The notes under the pieces are model-generated. The model saw only the letters and a program-made list of their open reading frames with translations, made no database searches and was not told where the DNA came from. The translations under genes and the position numbers were made by a program. From Parcubacteria group bacterium Gr01-1014_20 (lineage in GTDB: Bacteria; Patescibacteriota; Minisyncoccia; UBA6257; 2-01-FULL-56-20), in NCBI GenBank assembly GCA_007376265.1, contig VMFW01000006.1:10930-74929 (forward strand): a DNA stretch of 64,000 nt. Direction: 5' to 3'. Position 1 is the first letter of the stretch. Every line of letters begins with the position of its first letter. Shown here piece by piece: positions 5,626 through 55,732 of the stretch.

Positions 5626-5720
5626 GAATCATGAAGCATGAAACACATGTAAGTCTACGTTAATTATAGAACATTGGTTGATAAATAATAATGGCCGTTT
5701 CGAGTGAAACGGCCACAAAA

Positions 5721-6014
5721 CTACACTTTTGGTTTTAGGGATTGGTGGATACCTAGTCCAAGGAGTCCTAAGCCTCCTGATGAGAGAAGTCCGCCTAGGA
5801 TGATATTCAAAAGCGGGGGTTTTGCCGATAAAAACGGCGCGAGGCTTGTGATCAAGCCCAATAAAGCCAGAACAGCTCCGGTCAGCATAGTGTCCAGGTT
5901 ATCGGTTTGGACTGCCCGGCCTTTTTTTAGAAACGCGATCAGGAGTTTAAGGATGAGTAGGGAGCTAAGCGCGATGAGGGTCAACTTTAAAGCGCTGTCG
6001 GTGGTTTCTAACAT
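5721..6014 (-). CDS. small Gly/Leu-rich membrane protein, hypothetical
   Basis: 97 aa. GGGGGA RBS 6 nt upstream of the ATG. A 9-bp hairpin with a U-rich tail (5693-5714) sits immediately downstream. The competing plus-strand ORF 5704-6051 has no such signals and a non-protein-like composition. Confidence 0.5.
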
Positions 6015-6068: not shown

Positions 6069-6932
6069 TTATTTGTCAATTTGGGCCGAAAAAAATTTCA
6101 AGCGGCTGTCCTCCGCGACGGTTTTTATGGTGCCATCTCGATCGGTTCTTAAAACTTTGAGGATGTCGGTTTTACCGAGTCGGGCGAGAGTTTCTTCGGT
6201 TGGATGGCCGTAGCGGTTATCCCCTACTTCGATAACGGCAATCTCAGGGTTAACATTTTTTAGGAACTCGTCACTTGAAGAATATTTTGAACCATGATGA
6301 GGAATTTTCAAGATGTCGGCTTTGAGGGCTGGGCCAAATTTTTGAACTAAATATTTCTCTAAATTTTGTCCGATATCGCCGGTTAGAAGAATTTTTAGAT
6401 TTCCGGTTTCGATTTTAGTTACAAGCGAGGTGTCGTTCAACTCGCCGCTTTGAATAAAGTTTTGATCGGGCGAGAGAATGTTAATTTTATTTTGCGCATT
6501 TTTAATTTTATCACCGGCAGTCAAAATAATAACCGGAATTTTCTTTTCCTTAATTTTGGCGATTAAATTTTCCCACTCCCTTAGTTCGACGCCACGTCCG
6601 TTAACAATGAAGGCGCCGACTTCGTAGCGCTCCAGGATTTCGTTAAAGCCATTGAAGTGGTCAAGTTGGGGGTGGGTAATGACGGCTAGATCTATGTAGC
6701 GATCGGTTTCGCCTAGGACTTTTTCGAGCTCAACCGTGACTTTTTTGGATGGTCCGGCGTCGGTCAAAATTTGAACACCCGTTGGAAATTGGACAAGAGT
6801 CGAGTCTCCCTGGCCGACGTCTAGAAAATATATTTTTGGCGAACCAGAACGATCTAAAAAAATTATTTGTTGCCAGACTAATAAATCTAGGCCGACCAGA
6901 GCCAAAAAGATTACCCAGCTAAGATTTTTCAT
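6069..6932 (-). CDS. comEC: ComEC C-terminal-like metallo-beta-lactamase domain protein (separate ORF)
   Basis: N-terminal TM helix, then YFLDVGQGDSTLV and HHGSKYSSS, which are MBL motifs typical of the ComEC/Rec2 C-terminus. Overlaps the upstream ORF by 14 bp. Confidence 0.75.
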   Translation of the reverse strand: MKNLSWVIFLALVGLDLLVWQQIIFLDRSGSPKIYFLDVGQGDSTLVQFPTGVQILTDAGPSKKVTVELEKVLGETDRYIDLAVITHPQLDHFNGFNEILERYEVGAFIVNGRGVELREWENLIAKIKEKKIPVIILTAGDKIKNAQNKINILSPDQNFIQSGELNDTSLVTKIETGNLKILLTGDIGQNLEKYLVQKFGPALKADILKIPHHGSKYSSSDEFLKNVNPEIAVIEVGDNRYGHPTEETLARLGKTDILKVLRTDRDGTIKTVAEDSRLKFFSAQIDK

Positions 6933-8370
6933 GATTTTTTAAAACAAGCGCTAGTAAGAACCCGTAGTAAATTATAAAGACAATGCTGTGATTTAGAAAC
7001 TGACTACCAGGAAGCGGTAGGTAAATCAACGAAAAAATTTTGATGACCGCAAGCTGATAAAAAGCAAGAAGGCTGAGTAATTGGGCAACGAAAAATCCCA
7101 AGAGGAATGAAATCGAACTTAGGGCTGACAGCAAGAACCCTAAAAACATTGTGAAGGGAATAGTAAGCAAGATGAAGGTGTTCGCGAAAATAGCGCTTAA
7201 AGAAAACTGATTGAAGTTCAAAATGAGGATTGGGATTACGGCGAGCTGAGCGGCGACGGTGGTTACGCCATTTTCTTGCCAGGCCAGGAAACTTTCCTCT
7301 TTCTTGTCTTTTACCCGAAGTAGTTTTTTTAAAACTGGCTCAAGGTAAACAATTCCAAGGAGACTTAGGAACGAGAGCTGAAAACCAATGTCAAAAGCCA
7401 AGACTCCGGGGTTAACTAGAACCATCACGAGGGCGGTTAGGATAATGATATGAAGGGTATCGTGGACCCGACCGATATGTCCGGCTAGCAAGATAAGAGA
7501 GCCCATAATGGCGGCTCGAACTACCGAAGCTTCACCACCGACCATAATGACAAAAAGAAAAATTAGTCCAAGGGTAATGTAGAATCGTTTCTGACGCGAG
7601 ACGAGTTTTTTTAGCGAGCGTTCAATGGCTAGGGCTAAAATGGCGATGTTGTATCCGGAGAGAGCTACAATGTGAGTCACTCCGCTTCTAGCCATATCCG
7701 TTTTCAATTTTTCAGTGAACTCGGATTTTTCGCCAAAGGTGATACCGGCCACCAGCGCGGCTTTGTCTCGACTAAGTTGTTTTTTGAATTGGCCGATGAG
7801 GTGGTTTTTTAGGCCGTAAAGTTGGGTTTTTAACCAATGGCCCTGATTTTTAGCTTGCACCTCAATTTTCGGGAAGAATGAAATGGGAGGCTGGTTTTTA
7901 AATTGGCTTTTTTCGATTTTGCCATCGAGTTTTACGATGTCGCCGTAATCAAAACGAATCAAGGCATCTGTAAGGACGGTAATTCTTCCATGTTCTGGAG
8001 CTTGGAGTTCGACAGTGAGTTTTTGGTAAGTTTCTTTTTCCTCGGGGTTTTTAGTGAGAACTCCGATTACGATTGATTTCTCGCTTATGGGTATATTTTC
8101 AGCGCGGTTGGTAAAATTAAAAAAGAAATAAAAATAGAAAAACCCAAGAATGAGAAACACAACGCTCCCGACAAAAAACATTCCCGCGCTTGGAAGGATA
8201 CGGGGATGTTTGCTGTTTTCTCCGATATTAATTTTAAAAAACCCTCGTAGAGTAAAAAGCCCAATTAGAAAAACTAAAGAGGTTAAATAAAAATTCCACC
8301 CACTTGAGGCCGCAAAAATACCTAGTAAAAAACTTAGCCCCCAATAGGTGACTTTTTGCCGAGTCGCCAT
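6919..8370 (-). CDS. comEC: ComEC/Rec2 N-terminal part (DUF4131 plus competence domain), polytopic membrane protein
   Basis: 483 aa with many TM helices and the competence-domain pattern (…[14 protein letters not shown]…). Directly upstream of, and overlapping, the MBL-domain ORF. Confidence 0.75.
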
Positions 8371-9023
8371 TCCTGGATTTTTTTATGATTGCCGGATAGG
8401 AGGATAGGTGGAACTTTCCAGCCCACGCCTTTTCCGGGTTTAAATTCTGCCGGTTTGGTGTAGGTTTGATACGAACCTTTGACTTCTTCAAGGGACTCAT
8501 ATTTACCCAAAAAACCGGGTAGATAACGGCTAACGGCTTCGATTAAGACCATAGCTGGTAGTTCACCGCCGGACAAGACATAGTCCCCGATTGAAATTTC
8601 CTCATCGGCGATGTGGCTTGACACTCTTTCATCGACACCTTCGTAGCGACCACAAATTAAAATTAGTTGACTATGTTTCGCTAAGCGCTTAGCGGTAAAA
8701 CTATCCAATTTTTTGCCTCGAATTGAAAAGAGGATGGTTCTCGAGTTGAGGCTTTTTTTGATTTTTTTTATTGCTTTGTAGATGGGCTCAACTTTTAAAA
8801 CCATTCCCGGGCCGCCGCCAAAGGGAGAGTCGTCGACTTTTTTGTGTCGGTCGGAACTGTACTTGCGAAGGTCGTGGGTTTTTACTTTTATCAACCGAGT
8901 TTTAAGAGCGCGAGCAAGCATGGATTCGTTGAGGTAAGAATCCAGGATTTTGGGGAAGATAGTGAGGATATCAAAGCTAACCCTATGTCTCTTCAAAGTT
9001 GCTTTCTTTTTTTTCAGTTCCAT
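8334..9023 (-). CDS. trmD: tRNA (guanine37-N1)-methyltransferase
   Basis: [18 protein letters not shown]…[11 protein letters not shown]…[23 protein letters not shown] are TrmD SPOUT motifs. The ORF extends to 9107, but the conserved N-terminus begins at the internal ATG at 9023 (MELKKKK). Confidence 0.85.
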
Positions 9024-10806
9024 TTTGGTGTCTATGGTGTTCAAGGAGGTTTTTTTCAATCGGAGTTTCCTCCTTTTTCTCGTCTGCGGCTCCCATGAGG
9101 GACTCACTGATCGAGCTTCTCAAATCGTCAAGATCAATTTCTATTTTGGGTGGGCGAGGCAATTCTCTGGGTTTTGGGGGGAGGATTGGTGCGGGTAGTA
9201 GATGTTCCCTCTTTTGAAAGGCCTGTGGAGTTGTAGCTACTTCTTTTGGTTTGAGAACATTGATTCGGGGCTCCTCGGAGGCGGGTCGGTTTTCTGGTTT
9301 GGGAAGTGGTTTAACTTCCGGTTTTGTTTCTACTCGGGTTTGGGGGGTGGTGGGTTTGGGCCAGGATGGAACGGGCCAGTTCGGGCCCACTGGTTTTTGA
9401 GTTTTCTCTTGATATTTAGGCTCCAATCCCTTAGTCGGTTTTGGCTTTAGAATTTCTGAGAGAGATTGTTCGTCGCGCCGGCTAATTTTTTCGTCAACGG
9501 TTTGCATGTCGGCATTCCATTCGGCGCTGATTCTTTCCTCAACTATTTTCCGAGGAGTGCCATATTTTTTTTGCGAATTTTCTATAATAACATCTCGGTA
9601 GGAAATGAGGGGTTGTCTCGGCGGCGGAATAGTTTCGGCCGAAAAAGGTCGTTGGGCCATGCCATCAATCATTAACTTAAGATAAACATTGTATTTGGCT
9701 AGGTTGACCAGATCGTTTTGAACAAATTCCGGCATAAATTCTTTTTCTAAGAACTCTCCGTCAACGGCGCCAACTCGGAAGGTGATCAAGGTGCCAACGT
9801 TACCAAAGATGGCGTCGCGGACGTGGGTATTTTCGCCACCATCTAACTGGCCTATGTACTGGTGGGCCAGAGTGAGACTCAAGTGATATTTTCTAGCTTC
9901 GGACAATATATTGGCAAATGAGTCCGTAGCGAAGTTTTGAAACTCATCTACGTATAGGAAGAAATCGCGGCGCTTTTCTTCGGGCACGTCTACTCGAGAC
10001 ATAGCAGCTAGTTGGAGGCGGGTGATGATCATGGCTCCCAAAAGAGCGGAGTTGTCCTCACCCATACGGCCCTTCGATAGATTTACGACGAGGATTTTCC
10101 CCTCATCCATTATTTTTCTCATTTTTAACACTGAACTCGATTGACCAAGAATATTTCTAATGAGCGGATTGGAAACGAATTGGCCGACTTTGTTTTGGAT
10201 GGCGGCTAAGGCTTCGGTTTCGAAACGTTGATTGTAGCGGGCAAATTCTTCCGCCCAAAAGGCTTTAATGACAGGATCTTTAAGGCCGGAAACTATTTTT
10301 TTTCGATATTCTGGCTGTGAAAACATACGCATAATTCCAAGCAGGGTAGAGTTGGGGTATTCGAGAAGCGCCAGGAGGGTGTTGTTTAAAATGTATTCCA
10401 TTCTGGCAGACCAGGCGTCGGGCCAGATTTTTTTAAAAACACCCATAATGCCTGAAGCTACCAGGTGGCGAAACTCATTGCCAACTTGTTCGAGCGGATT
10501 GAAAGCGATCGGAAACTCGAGGTCAGCCGGGTTCACGTAAATCACGTCGTTCACCCTTTCTTCGGGGACAAAATCCAGAACCCTTTCAGCAAATTCACCG
10601 TGAGGATCAACAACACCCACTCCCCTCCCCGCGCGAATGTCATCGATGGCCATATTTTCAAGTAAGGTTGATTTCCCGGAGCCGGTTTTTCCAACGACAT
10701 AAATATGGCGGCGGCGATCGTCGAGTTTAATGCCGAAAACCTTTTTGGAGCTCCTGAAATTGGCTTGACCCAATATGGTTAATTCTTCCTGATCTTTTTT
10801 ATTCAT
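8983..10806 (-). CDS. FtsK/HerA/TraD(VirD4)-superfamily P-loop ATPase with a Pro/Lys-rich low-complexity C-terminal tail
   Basis: Walker [12 protein letters not shown] near residue 40, a DPHGE motif, and Walker [12 protein letters not shown]. The C-terminal roughly 170 aa are a Pro-rich, disordered-looking tail. There is an 8-bp overlap with the upstream membrane-protein gene. Confidence 0.7.
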
Positions 10807-12220
10807 ATTGTCTTTCGTCTTCTAGGAGTGGTAAATTTGGTGGCGGAGTTCCTTTTTTAGATTCGATTCTCTGGAGTTGAGGTGAGGTAACTGCGGTGAT
10901 TGGGAAGTGACAAATAGTGGCCAACTCCTCTATGTTTAAAATGGGAATTGGTTTTTTGGGAGACATTGATAGATCGCGATAACGTTCAAAAATTACGCGC
11001 CGTCGATAATCCAGCCGGGTTTCCTTGAAAAGGCCGTGAACAGCCGCTGTCATGGTCGGTTTATAGGGTCTTAGGAGGTTCAAATTTTGAGTGCTAAATT
11101 GCCTAAAGACACCCATAACGCCCATAACATTATCACGACTGAAGCTGTCGCGATGGTCGACGTAGATAAAACGTACGGTAGTGTCGAATCCAAGTTTAGC
11201 CGTTTTCCTTTCGATGCCCTCGAGGGCTTCTTTTTCTGTCGGTGAAAGCACGAGAAATTTGAAGTCATTATTCTTCCGTTCTTCTTTCTTTGCTTCGAGC
11301 GATGGGTGTTCGAATGGGGAGCGAACGGCCTCCTGAAGAGTAACTCCGAAGAGTGGAGTAGAGGGACTTTTAGCTTTTTTATCTCGACCCATCATTTTGT
11401 TTACCAGCTCGTCGCACTCGTCCTTCCAATCCCCTCCGGTGGGGCGAATCAAGAACTGAACCCAGATTTGTTCTTCGGATTTTAATTTCGACATCAGTTC
11501 AGTTAGAGCCGAGATTGGATCAACCCGACGTTCTTCGACAGGATCTTCAAATGAGATATAAGTTCGGATGGGGTAGCAGCTTTCTTTTTGAAGGACGAAT
11601 TCAAGGCCATGAGTCTGGAAAACTTTATTGGGCAGGACTTTAGGCATCTTTTTGACGTAGTCATCCTCTGGGTCCACTTCGCTTACTTCCGCGTTGGGAT
11701 ATTGTGAGTAGATAGCGGATTCCATTAGGTTTTGGAATTGAGCTGGGGTTCTTAGGTAAAGATGAATTTCGCCGCCAAGGCTGACTAATTCAAAGGCCAT
11801 TGAATACTCCCCTTTCCCCTCCCAGTGGATTTCCAAGAAACGCAGGCCGTAAGAATAAGGAGCGTGCGCGGCCGCGAAAATTTGTTCCATGGCTCTTGGT
11901 GTTTGCAGGATATCTTTAGGAATTTTTATTTCAAGCAACTTCCATCTGATTGCGACAAGCCATTTGAAATGAATGTAATAGTTCCACCAATACCAGAAAA
12001 AAGGCGCAAAGAAAGCGGGCAAAACAACCCACCAAACGTTGCTCCAGATCATCCCCATGTTTTTAAGGATCATTACGACCGGTTCCGGCAAATTAGGAAT
12101 CATTTCATTAATTTTAGCAAACTGTTTCAAAACGAAAAAGGGCCAAAAAATTTTAGGCCCTTTCTCTGTATTTACTTGATGATTTTGGTTACGCTTCCCG
12201 GATCTGGTAAGTCCCGTCAC
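10799..12220 (-). CDS. membrane protein (2 N-terminal TM helices plus a large soluble domain), partner of the downstream ATPase
   Basis: The N-terminus VVMILKNMGMIWSNVWWVVLPAFFAPFFWYWWNYYIHFKWLVAI gives two TM helices. The remaining roughly 380 aa are hydrophilic. Translationally coupled to the ATPase gene. Confidence 0.6.
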   Translation of the reverse strand: MTGLTRSGKRNQNHQVNTEKGPKIFWPFFVLKQFAKINEMIPNLPEPVVMILKNMGMIWSNVWWVVLPAFFAPFFWYWWNYYIHFKWLVAIRWKLLEIKIPKDILQTPRAMEQIFAAAHAPYSYGLRFLEIHWEGKGEYSMAFELVSLGGEIHLYLRTPAQFQNLMESAIYSQYPNAEVSEVDPEDDYVKKMPKVLPNKVFQTHGLEFVLQKESCYPIRTYISFEDPVEERRVDPISALTELMSKLKSEEQIWVQFLIRPTGGDWKDECDELVNKMMGRDKKAKSPSTPLFGVTLQEAVRSPFEHPSLEAKKEERKNNDFKFLVLSPTEKEALEGIERKTAKLGFDTTVRFIYVDHRDSFSRDNVMGVMGVFRQFSTQNLNLLRPYKPTMTAAVHGLFKETRLDYRRRVIFERYRDLSMSPKKPIPILNIEELATICHFPITAVTSPQLQRIESKKGTPPPNLPLLEDERQYE

Positions 12221-13223
12221 CCAAGCGTTCGAAGAATTTTCGGTTTTGGAGGTTAACGAGAATAGTGTTTTGTTTTAAGATCCTCTCCTTTTGAACAGCT
12301 AAGGAAATTTGCTTAGTGTTCATTGGTCCGTTTTGCTTCAAAATGCGCTTGATCACCTCCTGAACCGTACCGGGCTTAAAACCCTTTTCGGTTAGTCCGT
12401 AGATGCCCCGACCAACCAGAACAAACCGGTTGTCCTTGATGAGCTCATTGTGAACCGTTGGAGCCAGGGCAACTTTCTTGTCGAACTTAACTTCGTTGAT
12501 AAGGCTCGTGATTTGCTCAAAGTGCAGGGGTTCGGCGGACTTTTTGAGCACCAGGTAAATTCGATCGCGAATATTTTGCGGCTTAATTTCCGGCCATTCG
12601 GCGAGTCCAGTATCACTGTAGGGATTTGAGAAAACTTTCTTGGAGATGGCGACGAAATTCCTGGCAGAATTCTCGTTGATTTTTTCCGCTTTGATAAATT
12701 TAACGAAAAAGTTTTCGTAGTTTCCGGCCAACACTGCCTCTTTCTGTGGTTTCAGGAATTTGACCAATTGCGCGACAAATTTATTAAGATTGTCCAGATT
12801 TTTTCGATCTTGAAAGTAAAAAGATCGATAGTTCTGGTCTTCGTCGTGAAAGTGAAAATTTTTTGAAGATTCAAGCAGTAAGGCTAACTGATTTTTAGTG
12901 ATGCTGTCATCACCAGAGTTGAGTTGTTTTAATAGAATGTCTTCGCTAATAACGCCACCCACTGATTCCAGAGATTTCTTGCCTTTGCTTAAAATGGCTT
13001 GGCAATCTTTGTTCGTTGCGATTTTCTGTTTAAGCAAATTTAAACCAGCCGCTTCGATTTGACGGACACGTTCTCTGGTAATGCCGTATTTGTTACCGAG
13101 CGCGGCTAGAGTTTGCGGCTCTGAATTTGGCCCAGAAAGGCCAAAACGACCAACAATAACCTCCCTCCCCCTAGGGCTTAGGTCGGCAAAGATTGAATTA
13201 AAGACTTTTGTGATTGCACCCAT
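12189..13223 (-). CDS. protein with an N-terminal sigma-70 region-4-like HTH domain followed by about 270 aa of unknown function
   Basis: Residues about 15-70, LSPRGREVIVGRFGL…TLAALGNKYGITRERVRQIEAAGLNLLKQ, match sigma-70 regions 4.1/4.2 (compare LTxRExxVLxLRFGL…TRERIRQIEAKALRKL). No regions 2 or 3 are detectable. Confidence 0.6.
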   Translation of the reverse strand: MGAITKVFNSIFADLSPRGREVIVGRFGLSGPNSEPQTLAALGNKYGITRERVRQIEAAGLNLLKQKIATNKDCQAILSKGKKSLESVGGVISEDILLKQLNSGDDSITKNQLALLLESSKNFHFHDEDQNYRSFYFQDRKNLDNLNKFVAQLVKFLKPQKEAVLAGNYENFFVKFIKAEKINENSARNFVAISKKVFSNPYSDTGLAEWPEIKPQNIRDRIYLVLKKSAEPLHFEQITSLINEVKFDKKVALAPTVHNELIKDNRFVLVGRGIYGLTEKGFKPGTVQEVIKRILKQNGPMNTKQISLAVQKERILKQNTILVNLQNRKFFERLGDGTYQIREA

Positions 13224-13240
13224 ATTTTTATTGTTTTCCC

Positions 13241-13269
13241 ATTGTATACTGACTTGAAAAATAAGTCAA
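13241..13269 (-). promoter_or_regulatory. sigma-70-type promoter TTGACT-N17-TACAAT for the 12189-13223 operon, with the -35 element embedded in a 6-bp inverted repeat
   Basis: The minus strand reads TTGACTtatttttcaagtcagtaTACAAT, ending about 12 nt before the ATG at 13223. TGACTT-N7-AAGTCA forms an inverted repeat overlapping the -35. Confidence 0.45.
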
Positions 13270-13355
13270 ATAGTGACACTGGGTATAAACCTATCTGACT
13301 CCCTATTCTACTACGGCTTGGTTCTTTTGTCAAGTAGGGGGTAACTAAGGTAGGT

Positions 13356-45374: not shown

Positions 45375-46061
45375 TCAAACTGTGGTGGCCTTCACGGCAT
45401 TTTTTCTGTAGCTACAATACTCACATTCAGCCGAAGGATCGGGGGCTTTATCCGCCTCGCTAATTTTTTTGGCGTTTAGAATAGCCGCTTCAACCCAGGA
45501 GTTGTCACCAGTATAGGCTTCAACAAAAAGATCAAAAGCTAGTGCGGCTTTCCCGAAACCAAAACCTTCCGCCTTGTTGGCTTTAGCAAAAACAAAGTAG
45601 CCAGTTTTTGAAACTTTGTGCTTATTTTGCTCTAGGAGCCACTGATAGATTTCCATTTGGCGGCCGTATGAATCGTAGATTTTATGATTTTGAGCACCAG
45701 TAGCTTTATAGTCAACCACCATCAGTTCCCCCTTTGGGTTTTGCCAAATATCATCGACGGCTCCAAAGACAAGAAGTTCGCTTGGTTTATGGTGAAATTG
45801 AATTCCGGTAAAGTTGTGACGCCAAGTATTGATTTCGGGATGATCAAAAGGTACCGCCTCTATCATATGAGTGACCATAACTGGGTGGGGAGTTTTTTGC
45901 TCACGGTGCTGATCAAATTCCTGTTTCAGTAGATAGTCTACGGCGTTATTCAGGGTGAACGGAAAACCTGGTGGTCGTTTAACCCCTTTTGCTACATCTA
46001 ACCAAAAACAGCGAGGACATTCTAGTGAAAGTTCTATTTTTGAGCGGGATATTTTTTGCAT
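45375..46061 (-). CDS. stand-alone PD-(D/E)xK nuclease with N- and C-terminal Cys pairs (Cas4/RecB-nuclease-domain-like, DUF83-type)
   Basis: CPRCFW near the N-terminus, GAVDD…ELMVVDYKATG (D…E.K core), and a C-terminal CEYCSYRKN. 228 aa. No cas genes nearby. Confidence 0.55.
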   Translation of the reverse strand: MQKISRSKIELSLECPRCFWLDVAKGVKRPPGFPFTLNNAVDYLLKQEFDQHREQKTPHPVMVTHMIEAVPFDHPEINTWRHNFTGIQFHHKPSELLVFGAVDDIWQNPKGELMVVDYKATGAQNHKIYDSYGRQMEIYQWLLEQNKHKVSKTGYFVFAKANKAEGFGFGKAALAFDLFVEAYTGDNSWVEAAILNAKKISEADKAPDPSAECEYCSYRKNAVKATTV

Positions 46062-52750: not shown

Positions 52751-55732
52751 TTATCGCATTAGGTCTCGAAGCCCGCAATATTTACAGTCTTTTTTATTAC
52801 AGCGAGTGTTCCAGAATTCAAGGTTTCGTATTGAGTAGACTGCCTTTTGGATAATTTCCTTCAATTCATCCACCTCACTTTTTTGGATTTCGAAAAACTC
52901 CCGCTTAAAAGTGCCTCTTGGATTTGGTTCTATAAAATCAATTACTCCAGCGTCCATCTCCCAAGTTTTTTCTGGTTTAAGTTCTAGTAGAAGTTTGTAA
53001 AAAACCAACTGCCTCTTGTAATCGCCAGTTGAGTTTTTAGTCAACCCGAGAATTTGGTTTCTTGACCCAGGTTCTTTGGTTTTGTAATCCACCACGATGA
53101 CATGCTTAGGATTTTCTGTAATTTCAATTTTATCGAGTTTGCCAGTCAATTTAATGTTTTCAAGCATAACGCCCTTAATGGCGAACTCGTTCACGGTGTT
53201 GTAGTTCCAGGAATTTTGATAAAAATTATAATATTTTTCTAGAATTTTCTTTCCATAACTTAAGGTTTCCTCAAAATCGGTCTTTGTTAGCGGTTCACGA
53301 CTTAGGGCGTTCTCAAAGCTGAGCAGAATAGAGGGTGCGTCAACTAGCTTCCCTCCTCTTTTAGCGTCAAAAAAGTTTTTGAGAGCAAAGTGAACCGCCG
53401 TACCAAACATCTGTGATTTATTTTTTGATCGGGGAATTCTAAGTAGGTTGAGATAAAAATATTTCCAAGGGCAAGCAAGGTAGTTATTCAACGCACTCAC
53501 CGATAAACCTCGTTTTTCAAAGATCTGTATAAATAATTCTTGATTATCTGAAGTTACATTTTTCACCTTTGATGTATCGAAGAGAACCGCCCGATTTTCT
53601 AAGAACTTTCTGTCGAAATCACCACCCAAAATCTCTGTTTTCAGTTCTGCTCTAATTTCTCCCAGGAATTGACTGGGAATTTGATCTCGACCCTCTTCAT
53701 TTTTAGTGGAATAGGTTATGAAGACGTGTCTTTTGGCTCTAGTTAGGCACATGTAAAAAAGCCTCCGCTCATCCTCGTTTTTTTCAGTTTCATCTATATT
53801 AACGCTAGTTTTGAAAGGGATTTTGAATTTATCGAAATGACGCTTATTTCCCCAATGACCATCAACGGCTTTGGTGAGAAAAACTGTGGAAAATTCTAGA
53901 CCTTTAGCTCGATGAGCTGTCATTAATCGAACAGCGTTTCGAGTTGTGGCCGATTTTGACTGAAGAGAAAGGCCGTGGGTTTTTAAGATGTCGAGATGTT
54001 CTAAGTACTCTCTAAGAGAATAGGCTCGATGATCGTCGGTCGCTTTTCGAATTTCTCTGAAAAGCGAACTCAACTTGTCAATTTTTTGAAGATACTCCCC
54101 GTGTTGAATGATGTGGCTTAGGAATCCGGATTCGTTTAAAACTGCCTCGAAAAACTTTATAAAATCATCGTTACGACTTTTTTTACTCCACTTTTTAAAA
54201 AGCTGGTAGATCTTGCTCAGTTGAACCGAGTTACTGATTTCTAGATTCCTTAGGATTACTGGATCATCAAGGATTTTGTGCAAAGATCGTTTTTCTCTAA
54301 TCGTGGCAACTGAAAGTTGGTAGATATCAAGCGGGTCGATGTTTAGAAAATCAATGTGCAAGACTTCCAGGAGTTTTTCATCATTACCGAACTCATTGAT
54401 GGCGCTAAATATTAGATTGAGTTTTTTAATATCGGGATCGTCTAGAATATTAGACTCGGATTCAATTACATAAGCTAGGCCGGCTTTGTTTAGAAAATCA
54501 GCAATAAGTTTCGCATCTCTATTTTCTCGATACAGAATGGCGATTTGTTCCGGTTTTATTTCGTTGTCTAGTAAGAGCTTAATTTCTTCGACAATAAACA
54601 TTCCCTCTCCCTCAGGGGTTTCGAAGGCGTAAACTTTTATCTTCTCGCCGACATCTTTAGTGGTGGCTCGGAGAGGAGAAAATATGGTGGTTCGATTTTT
54701 TTCAATTAAATCCTGCGCAGAGTCGAGAATGGTTTGAGTAGAACGGTAACTATCTTCTAAATTAATGAGTTTAACGCTAGGATATTTTTTCTGAAAATAA
54801 AGAAAATTGTCTAGATTAGCACCTTGAAACCGAAAAATCGCCTGTTTTTCGTCGCCAACCACGAAAAGATTGGGATTTGGATAAAAGTCACAAATTAGCT
54901 CTAGGATTCGATTTTGAGCCCCGTTGGTGTCCTGGTGTTCATCGATTAAGAGATATTGAAACTTCTCCTGAACTTCTCTCAAAAATTCCGCTTTTGTTTC
55001 AAAGGCCTTAATGGTCTCGAGGATCATATCCTCAAAATCATAGAACCTTTTGTCTCGTAAAATCTCCTGATACTTTTTGTAGACCCTCCCCAGTTCCGAA
55101 TTTTTTTGACTATCCTTTAGCTGTTTTTGATACTCTCCTTTGATTTTACCGGCGTGAGCGCCGGTTAGATGATACTTGTCTGCTCGCTTTTCTAAGCTGG
55201 CAGCTTCTTCCTTAGCGATTTCGATAAAGGCCTTTGCTGAAATCCCTTCGTTTTTCAGATTTTTAATCGAAGCTAAGATATCTCTAACGTAAAAATATTT
55301 ATCACCGAAAGGCTTGATGTGATCGTAGGGTTCTAGGTCGAGGATTTCTCTAATGATGGAAATTCGACTAACTTCTGTCGTGTTTTTGCCACCAATCAAT
55401 TCTTCGTAATTTTCAGGATATTCTTGAATTAGGGTGTTGCAAAAACTATGAAAGGTGCCGATTGTGACGTAATAACCCCGTGAACCAATGAGATTAACAA
55501 GCCGTCTCCGCATATTGGCCGCCGCTGATTCAGTAAATGTCAGGGCGAGGATGGAGTCAGCTGGAGTGTCGCTTTTTGCAAGGATGTTTGCAATTCGGAG
55601 GGTTAAAATCTGGGTTTTACCCGTCCCTGGACCGGCAATAACCATCACGGGGCCATCAATGGTTTCAACCGCCTCTCTTTGCTTTGGGTTAAGGTTTGCT
55701 AGGGTTTTAGCAAAATTAGCTTCAGTTATCAT
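52751..55732 (-). CDS. UvrD/PcrA-family SF1 helicase fused to a C-terminal Cas4/RecB-like PD-(D/E)xK nuclease with a Cys cluster
   Basis: N-terminal VIAGPGTGKTQILTLRIANIL (Walker A), then helicase motifs through about 650 aa. The C-terminus carries …VIVVDYKTKEP… and …CNKKDCKYCG. 993 aa. Confidence 0.8.
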   Translation of the reverse strand: MITEANFAKTLANLNPKQREAVETIDGPVMVIAGPGTGKTQILTLRIANILAKSDTPADSILALTFTESAAANMRRRLVNLIGSRGYYVTIGTFHSFCNTLIQEYPENYEELIGGKNTTEVSRISIIREILDLEPYDHIKPFGDKYFYVRDILASIKNLKNEGISAKAFIEIAKEEAASLEKRADKYHLTGAHAGKIKGEYQKQLKDSQKNSELGRVYKKYQEILRDKRFYDFEDMILETIKAFETKAEFLREVQEKFQYLLIDEHQDTNGAQNRILELICDFYPNPNLFVVGDEKQAIFRFQGANLDNFLYFQKKYPSVKLINLEDSYRSTQTILDSAQDLIEKNRTTIFSPLRATTKDVGEKIKVYAFETPEGEGMFIVEEIKLLLDNEIKPEQIAILYRENRDAKLIADFLNKAGLAYVIESESNILDDPDIKKLNLIFSAINEFGNDEKLLEVLHIDFLNIDPLDIYQLSVATIREKRSLHKILDDPVILRNLEISNSVQLSKIYQLFKKWSKKSRNDDFIKFFEAVLNESGFLSHIIQHGEYLQKIDKLSSLFREIRKATDDHRAYSLREYLEHLDILKTHGLSLQSKSATTRNAVRLMTAHRAKGLEFSTVFLTKAVDGHWGNKRHFDKFKIPFKTSVNIDETEKNEDERRLFYMCLTRAKRHVFITYSTKNEEGRDQIPSQFLGEIRAELKTEILGGDFDRKFLENRAVLFDTSKVKNVTSDNQELFIQIFEKRGLSVSALNNYLACPWKYFYLNLLRIPRSKNKSQMFGTAVHFALKNFFDAKRGGKLVDAPSILLSFENALSREPLTKTDFEETLSYGKKILEKYYNFYQNSWNYNTVNEFAIKGVMLENIKLTGKLDKIEITENPKHVIVVDYKTKEPGSRNQILGLTKNSTGDYKRQLVFYKLLLELKPEKTWEMDAGVIDFIEPNPRGTFKREFFEIQKSEVDELKEIIQKAVYSIRNLEFWNTRCNKKDCKYCGLRDLMR

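Follow-up and report, generated by a model that had tools for sequence, protein, structure and literature searches.

The 64,000-nucleotide (nt) window analysed here (contig VMFW01000006.1 of Parcubacteria group bacterium Gr01-1014_20; all coordinates are window positions) carries six successive minus-strand open reading frames (ORFs) between 13223 and 6069. Two of them, a gene for a DUF8128 (PF26449) protein and the ATPase gene that overlaps its end, are the subject of this work. We conclude with high confidence that these neighbours encode the two halves of a single protein related to the ATPases of type IV secretion systems (T4SSs): a VirD4-like ATPase whose DUF8128 part resembles the N-terminal domain of VirB4. 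The family is fused in other classes of Patescibacteria and split in genomes of the Paceibacteria type. As to function, we see about an even chance that the pair is a coupling or translocation ATPase tied to a Patescibacterial T4SS. A large part of bacterial diversity belongs to the Patescibacteria, host-dependent organisms that cannot live without a T4SS and in which DNA uptake goes through ComEC.

Evidence that both genes correspond to one protein comes from relatives in which they are joined. The family phrog_5156 (824 positions) spans both: positions 76-356 correspond to the partner and 406-818 to the ATPase (E 6e-62). In gp156 of Bacillus phage G (825 amino acids, aa), residues 46-320 align to the partner profile (hhalign probability 96.5%, E 8e-10) and residues ~371-820 to the ATPase (tblastn E 5e-39). 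A search seeded with gp156 returned dozens of Patescibacterial proteins of 725-1140 aa in which PF26449 is combined with PF10412, PF01935, PF02534 and PF12696 (TrwB_AAD_bind, DUF87, T4SS-DNA_transf and TraG-D_C); these are encoded in Berkelbacteria, Falkowbacteria, Gottesmanbacteria and Saccharibacteria-labelled genomes, and fused relatives are also found in the Bacillus phages G, CP-51, JL and SPO1-like phages. Most fused forms bear a hydrophobic N-terminal helix, including those of the loci numbered L083, L084 and L087 in our collection. One fused homologue, P0215, shares 48% identity with the window ATPase in its own ATPase half, and its structure model (pLDDT 88) aligns to full-length TrwK/VirB4 over ~830-860 columns (E 6e-16). 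The ATPase half of this model superposes on TrwB with a template-modelling (TM) score of 0.63-0.67 and a root-mean-square deviation of ~4.6-5 Å over ~410 columns of ~420 residues, and on Cag-beta/VirD4 with a TM score of 0.55; in it, helices 420-545 make up the all-alpha insert that marks coupling proteins, a feature read from the fused homologue and not from the window ATPase. Because the P0215 model matches TrwK over its full length and TrwB in its C-terminal half, the family unites a VirB4-like N-domain with a VirD4-like motor. For the split form, a scan of one genome per species gave 80 loci, all from Patescibacteria metagenome-assembled genomes of the Paceibacteria type; the two genes are adjacent in 78 of them, mostly 2-60 nt apart. 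The original prediction had read the two genes as a VirD4 protein split into transmembrane and nucleotide-binding parts, of which the idea of two halves of one T4SS-type ATPase stands (phrog_5156, the fused proteins), but not the identity assigned to the partner.

What kind of protein is this partner? A search of 5.8 billion proteins returned 2,663 relatives, essentially all from Patescibacteria, and a profile search of 1.84 billion cluster representatives returned 2,842 family members, the best 150 of which are all stand-alone proteins of ~315-550 aa. A precomputed PF26449 assignment, named DUF8128, is present on nearly all partner homologues among the matches listed, including P0001 at 93% identity; scans of the partner with Pfam, NCBIfam and PADLOC gave no match, the Pfam set scanned being one without PF26449, and P0013 likewise had none. 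A literature search for DUF8128 found no papers. Hydropathy analysis reveals one hydrophobic segment (residues 9-36), and the AlphaFold2 model (pLDDT 74, pTM 0.72) consists of a single long helix (7-51) followed by alpha/beta domains. When this model was compared with the PDB by Foldseek, the top 13 matches were all TrwK/VirB4 of R388 (E 5e-6 to 3e-4, probability 1.0, query TM score 0.35-0.40), and among viral models the best match was Bacillus phage G gp156 (1.5e-16), followed by phage JL, phage Slash and the VirB-like gp155. A profile search against PDB sequences gave noise only (E of at least 0.27); the resemblance to VirB4 is one of fold alone, its N-terminal placement being supported by the fused proteins. 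The link to gp156 runs through profile and fold methods only, tblastn of the partner against phage genomes having returned no match. In the models, the N-terminal half folds like the N-terminal domain of VirB4 and is tethered to the membrane. The partner had been described as a membrane protein of 473 aa with two transmembrane segments; it has 434 aa and a single N-terminal hydrophobic segment, and the transmembrane half of VirD4 was rejected as its identity, the protein being instead a ~390-aa cytoplasmic DUF8128 domain behind one hydrophobic helix. Homology to TrsD was likewise ruled out as a claim from sequence: hhalign of the partner profile with a TraC-like, TrsD-type protein of the Candidate Phyla Radiation (CPR; locus L088) gave a probability of 0.1%, that is, no similarity.

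The ATPase is matched by the profiles TrwB_AAD_bind (E 1.3e-11; 44.5 bits, cut-off 20.5), DUF87 (2.8e-10; 41.1 bits, cut-off 23.2), T4SS-DNA_transf (1.5e-9; 37.7 bits, cut-off 20.1) and TraG-D_C (1e-5), and TrwB is its best sequence match in the PDB (E 8e-7). Walker A (GKTGSGKS at 39) and Walker B (FFLYVDE at 282) motifs are present. Its 607 residues contain no convincing transmembrane segment, the sole window above a lenient hydropathy cut-off of 1.3 (residues 254-272, 1.32) lying inside the P-loop domain. The proline-rich tail of about 170 aa that had been anticipated is indeed there (residues 441-607; 16% P, 14% E, 12% K). Of the families between which the original prediction had wavered, TrwB_AAD_bind came out best. 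FtsK_SpoIIIE stayed below its cut-off (E 0.009, 15.9 bits against 24) and covered only 26 residues at the P-loop; AAA_10, P-loop_TraG and CagE_TrbE_VirB gave no match, and the NCBIfam VirB4 models cover only 18-39 P-loop residues. HerA is among the fold matches of P0215, but TrwB fits better, and no NurA was seen. The NCBIfam CedD model matches residues 12-94, the P-loop region, alone (5e-9, 35 bits against a cut-off of 600). Taken with the P0215 model, the C-terminal half is a TrwB/VirD4-type nucleotide-binding domain with a modelled all-alpha insertion and intact Walker motifs.

We can now place the pair among known systems. With type IV coupling proteins (T4CPs; TrwB of R388, VirD4, TraD, Cag-beta) it shares the P-loop domain with an inserted all-alpha domain, TrwB being the best match among solved structures, as well as membrane attachment via an N-terminal hydrophobic segment, a disordered C-terminal tail and, in some Patescibacteria (L085, L088), a place beside a T4SS. 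Unlike in these proteins, the window ATPase polypeptide is without a transmembrane segment, and the hydrophobic helix is carried by the separate DUF8128 protein; canonical T4CPs have no DUF8128, which here stands as a ~390-aa domain between anchor and motor and is a gene of its own. The window ORFs scanned also include no relaxase or T4SS gene, and the Patescibacterial gene is chromosomal, near-universal in the phylum and part of a housekeeping array. VirB4 (TrwK of R388) offers the same succession of an N-terminal alpha/beta domain and an ATPase domain, ~800 aa when fused, and the stand-alone TrsD/TraC-like proteins of monoderm T4SSs, which resemble the VirB4 N-terminus, are a precedent for a split N-domain (TrsD, PMC12102498). 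However, the window ATPase half matches T4CP and not VirB4 profiles, and CPR genomes carry a separate true VirB4 (L085, L088). Phage G gp156 and its phrog_5156 relatives (also CP-51 gp91, JL and SPO1-like) have both domains in the same order, with a precomputed PF26449 on gp156, but gp156 is fused, phage-encoded, without the N-terminal hydrophobic helix and ~25% identical. CedD/TedD of the archaeal Ced/Ted systems are VirD4-like ATPases of the HerA/FtsK superfamily, of which some orthologues lack a transmembrane domain and presumably depend on a partner, and CedD acts in DNA import, not export (PMC11823120); they differ in being archaeal, in working with CedA/CedB instead of ComEC and in the weakness of the CedD model match. 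ComFA, the Gram-positive competence ATPase, acts in the cytoplasm, where it has been proposed to power the passage of DNA through ComEC, and is as such a functional analogue only: it is of the DEAD-box helicase type, an unrelated superfamily, and Pfam and NCBIfam scans of the window proteins showed no similarity to it.

These results define the family of an orphan VirD4-like gene by three traits: an additional DUF8128 domain with the fold of the VirB4 N-terminus, the occurrence of anchor and motor as separate genes, and the existence of fused counterparts in phages of Bacillus. If the family connects the VirB4 and VirD4 lineages, as is possible, this would bear on the evolution of T4SS ATPases. 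The definition also helps to assign a role to a near-universal Patescibacterial orphan that has so far had none and that lies mostly far from secretion genes, as a 2025 survey found (PMC12102498).

The other genes of the run are a sigma-4/HARE-HTH gene upstream and, downstream, trmD and a comEC divided into a channel gene (comEC-N) and a metallo-beta-lactamase gene (comEC-MBL; Table 1). From this set, the original prediction had proposed a DNA translocation motor acting with ComEC, a new accessory of competence. Across the 80 loci, in which partner identity falls to 33%, tblastn and ORF clustering reveal a shared array: dnaK, an unknown membrane protein and dnaJ lie further upstream, followed by variable genes and then by secD, secF, sigma-4/HARE-HTH, DUF8128 and ATPase genes; after the ATPase come trmD, or efp (usually on the opposite strand) and mnmA, sometimes with a CobA-like gene; comEC-N and comEC-MBL follow, and then either amidohydrolase, ftsW and murG or aspS and ndk. 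The order from secD to the ATPase gene is nearly invariant, with sigma-4/HARE-HTH directly upstream of the DUF8128 gene in 60/61 informative loci and secF upstream in 42/52. Of 48 informative loci, 34 have a comEC-N gene on the same strand at most 6.5 kb downstream, and 14 have no comEC nearby. Nowhere does comEC-N directly adjoin the ATPase gene: housekeeping genes (trmD, or efp with mnmA) always stand between, and in 12 of the 34 loci with comEC the intervening genes include one, efp, on the opposite strand. With 34/48 loci against 42/52, comEC is no better linked to the pair than secDF. The operon-like packing seen in the window is not conserved across related loci. The presence of trmD, which had been thought unusual in such an operon, is typical of the lineage, as it occupies this position in 36-42 of the 80 loci, about half of the class, with efp/mnmA there in the others.

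But what surrounds the fused gene in other classes? We examined 7-8 kb around it at 11 places, and comEC was within this distance at none of them (0/11). Synteny of the pair with comEC, the absence of which had been named as grounds for rejecting the idea, is thus found within Paceibacteria but not outside. In two Microgenomatia loci (L085, L088), the fused gene is divergently adjacent to genes for PrgI, a TraC-like protein, VirB4, Peptidase_M23 and T4SS_pilin; in four ABY1-type loci (L083, L086, L089, L091) it precedes dnaX and serS, in L084 and L087 it precedes gyrB and gyrA, and in L092 (Berkelbacteria) two tandem paralogues adjoin secDF. At the remaining two places the neighbours are unrelated housekeeping genes, in one case a ribosomal protein gene and ruvA (upstream), in the other pgk (downstream). 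The sigma-4/HARE-HTH gene is absent from the position upstream of the fused gene in these classes. A third partner common to the phylum was considered and rejected, the small upstream ORFs (114-173 aa) being related only within a class and unrelated to sigma-4/HARE-HTH. Among them, a conserved ORF of 159-160 aa without a Pfam match lies 2-10 nt before the fused gene in the ABY1-type loci (2 nt in L083 and L086) and is itself preceded by a small ferredoxin gene (L083 7519-7998, L086 7519-7998, L089 1063-1542, L091 6508-6990), and may be a class-specific partner. The tandem DUF8128-VirD4 paralogues of L092 (2432-8348; 829 and 937 aa, with a 173-aa ORF between them) are convergent with secF and secD and fit the figure of about two T4CP homologues per genome in PMC12102498. 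In phage G, gp155, a VirB4/TraG-P-loop-like ATPase, lies directly upstream of the gp156 fusion (L081, 1223-5365), and the two constitute a T4SS-like ATPase pair in a jumbo Bacillus phage.

In the explanation we favour, the DUF8128 protein would hold the ATPase, itself soluble, to the membrane on the cytoplasmic side, where the ATPase would form a hexameric ring and act as a type IV coupling or translocation motor; it would feed DNA or protein to the chromosomal, mating-pair-formation FATA (MPF-FATA)-like T4SS encoded elsewhere in most Patescibacteria genomes, with its variable proline-rich tail as the arm by which it docks. The T4SS cluster beside the fused gene in L085 and L088 and the position of gp155 next to gp156 in phage G speak for this link. 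The close arrangement with trmD and the two comEC genes, together with sigma-4/HARE-HTH and secDF, would on this explanation be a class-specific housekeeping order in a streamlined genome and no dedicated competence module. Quinonero-Coronel et al. (2025; PMC12102498) counted 5,713 VirD4 homologues in 2,918 of 3,035 Patescibacteria genomes, and virB4 in 2,417, and described abundant TrsD proteins remotely like the VirB4 N-terminus. Several points weigh against a T4SS-linked motor. Only 148 of the 5,713 VirD4 homologues are near virB4, VirD4 homologues occur in more genomes (96%) than virB4 does (80%), and exaptation is left open by the authors of that survey. The survey also reports, from the transposon sequencing of Wang et al. 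2023, that Southlakia epibionticum can do without its t4cp homologue but not without other T4SS genes (PMC12102498), and Wang et al. 2023 (PMC10633639) recognised no coupling protein in the T4SS cluster of this organism. Our own scan of 46 window ORFs, which took in 40 of the 50 of at least 150 aa, found no T4SS family and no relaxase family, and neither was found in the 80 related loci. Finally, two Paceibacteria arrangements that differ in other respects both keep comEC a few kb away at most, which could reflect selection.

A different role, which we regard as rather unlikely, is that of a housekeeping translocase independent of any T4SS: a coupling protein would have been exapted into a membrane ATPase that is near-universal in CPR and serves, for example, FtsK-like chromosome handling at division or the export or import of another polymer. 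The frequency of VirD4 homologues (~2 per genome, in 96% of the Patescibacteria genomes surveyed) and their usual distance from virB4 (PMC12102498) would suit such a role, as would the dnaX (L083, L086, L089, L091) and gyrB-gyrA (L084, L087) neighbours in other classes, the tandem paralogues adjoining secDF in L092 and the position of the window pair in a block with ftsW and murG. However, small genomes are dense in housekeeping genes and such neighbours are expected by chance, the FtsK_SpoIIIE match is confined to the P-loop, the ATPase is without a gamma-domain-like DNA-recognition module, and the fused gene adjoins a T4SS in Microgenomatia. That the pair is instead a DNA-uptake motor, in which a membrane-anchored VirD4-like hexamer docks on ComEC and pulls in single-stranded DNA in place of ComFA, by analogy with CedD of the archaeal Ced system, we consider quite unlikely. 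It would account for the end-to-end overlap of the pair, trmD and both comEC genes in the window and for the same-strand comEC in two local arrangements of Paceibacteria. It has precedents: CedD, to whose model the ATPase bears its weak match, is VirD4-like and essential for DNA import in Sulfolobus (PMC11823120), and the ComB T4SS of H. pylori cooperates with ComEC in DNA uptake (PMC12857230); ComFA, moreover, is not among the com genes given as conserved across CPR (ComEC, DprA and ComFC; PMC10633639). Against it stand the unrelated housekeeping genes that always part the ATPase gene from comEC, with efp on the opposite strand at 12 of 34 loci, the loci with no comEC nearby, its absence at every place in other classes and the linkage, at least as tight, of secDF, which has no DNA role. 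In addition, the essentiality of the type IV pilus and T4SS of S. epibionticum is not attributable to a functional interaction with ComEC (PMC12857230).

The competence accessory is therefore unsupported as it had been put forward, being built on the gene order of one class in which unrelated genes are equally fixed; closeness to comEC looks like a gene-order habit of that class and is weak evidence for a competence motor. The pair is the split form of a poorly characterised Patescibacterial VirD4 homologue that is most likely linked to type IV secretion; a role alongside ComEC is possible but weakly supported. The most far-reaching version, a near-universal Patescibacterial housekeeping DNA translocase, intermediate between VirB4 and VirD4, that powers ComEC import in Paceibacteria in place of the missing ComFA and so mirrors CedD, strikes us as improbable. 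If the comEC link were true, the missing DNA-uptake motor of Patescibacteria would have been identified, which is unlikely on present evidence. A remnant of a conjugative element or prophage that came to lie beside comEC by chance would explain why the nearest fused relatives outside CPR are in Bacillus phages, and T4CPs are typical of mobile elements; this origin is effectively refuted by conserved chromosomal synteny, the same locus and order recurring in 80 species-level genomes despite the low partner identity. Core housekeeping genes flank the locus, its composition is unremarkable, no integrase or relaxase was seen nearby in related loci, and a scan of IMG/VR viral contigs found no relative of the partner. 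The coordinates of the locus are collected in Table 1.

Table 1. Genes of the run around the DUF8128-ATPase pair and the candidate transcription signals between and beside them.
Feature	Position	Strand	Description
Sigma-4/HARE-HTH gene	12189-13223	-	344-aa DNA-binding protein: Sigma70 region 4 (residues 13-65), HARE-HTH (222-278), C-terminal winged-helix-like region
DUF8128 (PF26449) gene	10799-12103	-	434 aa: N-terminal hydrophobic helix and VirB4-NTD-like alpha/beta domain; N-terminal half of split ATPase
ATPase gene	8983-10806	-	607-aa VirD4/TrwB-type P-loop ATPase; disordered Pro/Glu/Lys-rich tail 441-607
trmD	8334-9023	-	tRNA (m1G37) methyltransferase; NF000648 2.5e-74; start uncertain
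comEC-N channel gene	6919-8370	-	483 aa, polytopic; Competence domain and weak DUF4131/OB
comEC-MBL gene	6069-6932	-	287-aa metallo-beta-lactamase part; N-terminal hydrophobic anchor, residues 1-28
Small membrane protein ORF	5721-6014	-	97 aa, ~3 hydrophobic segments; possibly last gene of unit
Promoter-like site TTGACA-17-TAGAAT	13305-13333	-	11/12 consensus matches; inside 132-nt gap after secF; consensus match only
Promoter-like site TTGACT-17-TACAAT	13241-13269	-	10/12 matches; ends 17 nt before ATG 13223
Terminator-like hairpin AAAGGGCC-loop-GGCCCTTT then TTCGTTTT	12128-12166	-	between sigma-4 and DUF8128 genes
Extended -10-like element TGCTAAAAT	12111-12119	-	7 nt before ATG 12103; TGnTAAAAT pattern
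Terminator-like hairpin	5691-5716	-	11-bp stem, 6 GC; closes gene run

The identities that had been given to the six ORFs are confirmed by Pfam and NCBIfam profile matches (for the 344-aa protein, Sigma70_r4 at E 1.3e-11, with HARE-HTH also matched), the DUF8128 ORF alone being without one. Four of the predicted overlaps are present as well: 8 nt between the DUF8128 and ATPase genes (ATGAATAA), 41 nt between the ATPase gene and trmD if the latter starts at ATG 9023, 37 nt between trmD and comEC-N, and 14 nt between comEC-N and comEC-MBL. For trmD, whose open frame covers 8334-9107, alternative starts are TTG 9059, which gives an overlap of 77 nt and has GGAGG 9 nt upstream within the ATPase gene, and TTG 8996, which gives 14 nt; within 8983-9107, depending on the start codon chosen, the final 14-77 nt of the DNA coding for the ATPase tail also begin trmD. 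The open frame of the DUF8128 gene extends over 10799-12220 through an upstream GTG. Its homologues are 425-435 aa long and begin at the equivalent of MIPNLPEP, and because these lengths and N-termini correspond, we place the start at ATG 12103. The 32-bp overlap between the sigma-4 and DUF8128 genes that had been reported is an artefact of the GTG start; with ATG 12103, a spacer of 85 nt separates them.

This spacer changes how the run is likely to be transcribed. The hairpin within it has a GGGCC...GGCCC stem and a T-run (centroid -18.4 kcal/mol, z -2.5). Spacers at this junction, mostly 30-200 nt and often with a hairpin and T-run, are found in nearly all related loci scored, with comparable examples in L003, L016, L025, L071 and L074. 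Boxes resembling a -10 element, TTGATAAT or TACAAT, abut the DUF8128 start codon in many relatives (for example L027, L028, L030, L032, L034, L038, L039 and L063). The TGCTAAAAT box is a possible promoter of the DUF8128-ATPase unit, and its distance of ~7 nt from the start codon suggests a leaderless mRNA. Since the 85-nt spacer contains both a terminator-like hairpin and a -10-like box and has counterparts in relatives, the sigma-4 gene is probably a transcription unit of its own, and the unit with the pair probably starts at the DUF8128 gene. From there, a tightly packed run of the DUF8128 gene, the ATPase gene, trmD, comEC-N, comEC-MBL and perhaps the 97-aa ORF leads to the hairpin at 5716-5691. 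A single six-gene operon from the sigma-4 gene onwards, as first proposed, fits the shared direction of the genes and the remaining five junctions, which overlap or abut, but the hairpin and -10-like box would split off the sigma-4 gene. The near-consensus promoter predicted upstream of that gene is present; a better site lies 36 nt upstream of it, though, and promoter-like sites in the region are no commoner than in shuffled sequence (14 against 10.9 +/- 3.5). A terminator directly after 6069 was not found, the 97-aa membrane ORF coming before the hairpin; this ORF is species-specific, being present in L001 alone among the 80 loci.

The split of comEC is genuine and lineage-wide. Its channel half matches the Competence profile (E 2.5e-46, 158.7 bits), with DUF4131 below cut-off (23.1 bits against 31.6), and comEC-MBL matches Lactamase_B and positions 425-663 of TIGR00361 (1.2e-35), the C-terminal third of ComEC; all ComEC domains are thus present on two polypeptides. 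A frameshift or assembly error was ruled out as the cause, channel and MBL being separate ORFs in 39/39 loci, with independent start codons and small gaps or an intervening ORF. In L041, an ORF of 183 aa lies between the two genes.

Elsewhere, the scanned part of the window is made up of ordinary housekeeping DNA, but a few genes deserve mention. Two nuclease genes for the processing of DNA ends share the window with comEC: a 993-aa UvrD-helicase with a PD-(D/E)XK nuclease domain, of the AddA/PcrA type (52751-55732, minus strand), and a separate 228-aa PD-(D/E)XK nuclease (45375-46061, minus strand). An 845-aa ORF (38201-40738, minus strand) contains the shoulder domain of Major Vault Protein (PF11978, E 4.7e-27) and a Vault_3 repeat (E 7.7e-9); such a gene is unusual for a Patescibacterium, its local GC content is 0.527 against ~0.45 elsewhere, and it may have been acquired horizontally. 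Adjoining it, a gene at 40949-42973 (minus strand) encodes a 674-aa protein with a dockerin type I domain and He_PIG/Big_9 Ig-like repeats, which is likely a surface or adhesion protein.

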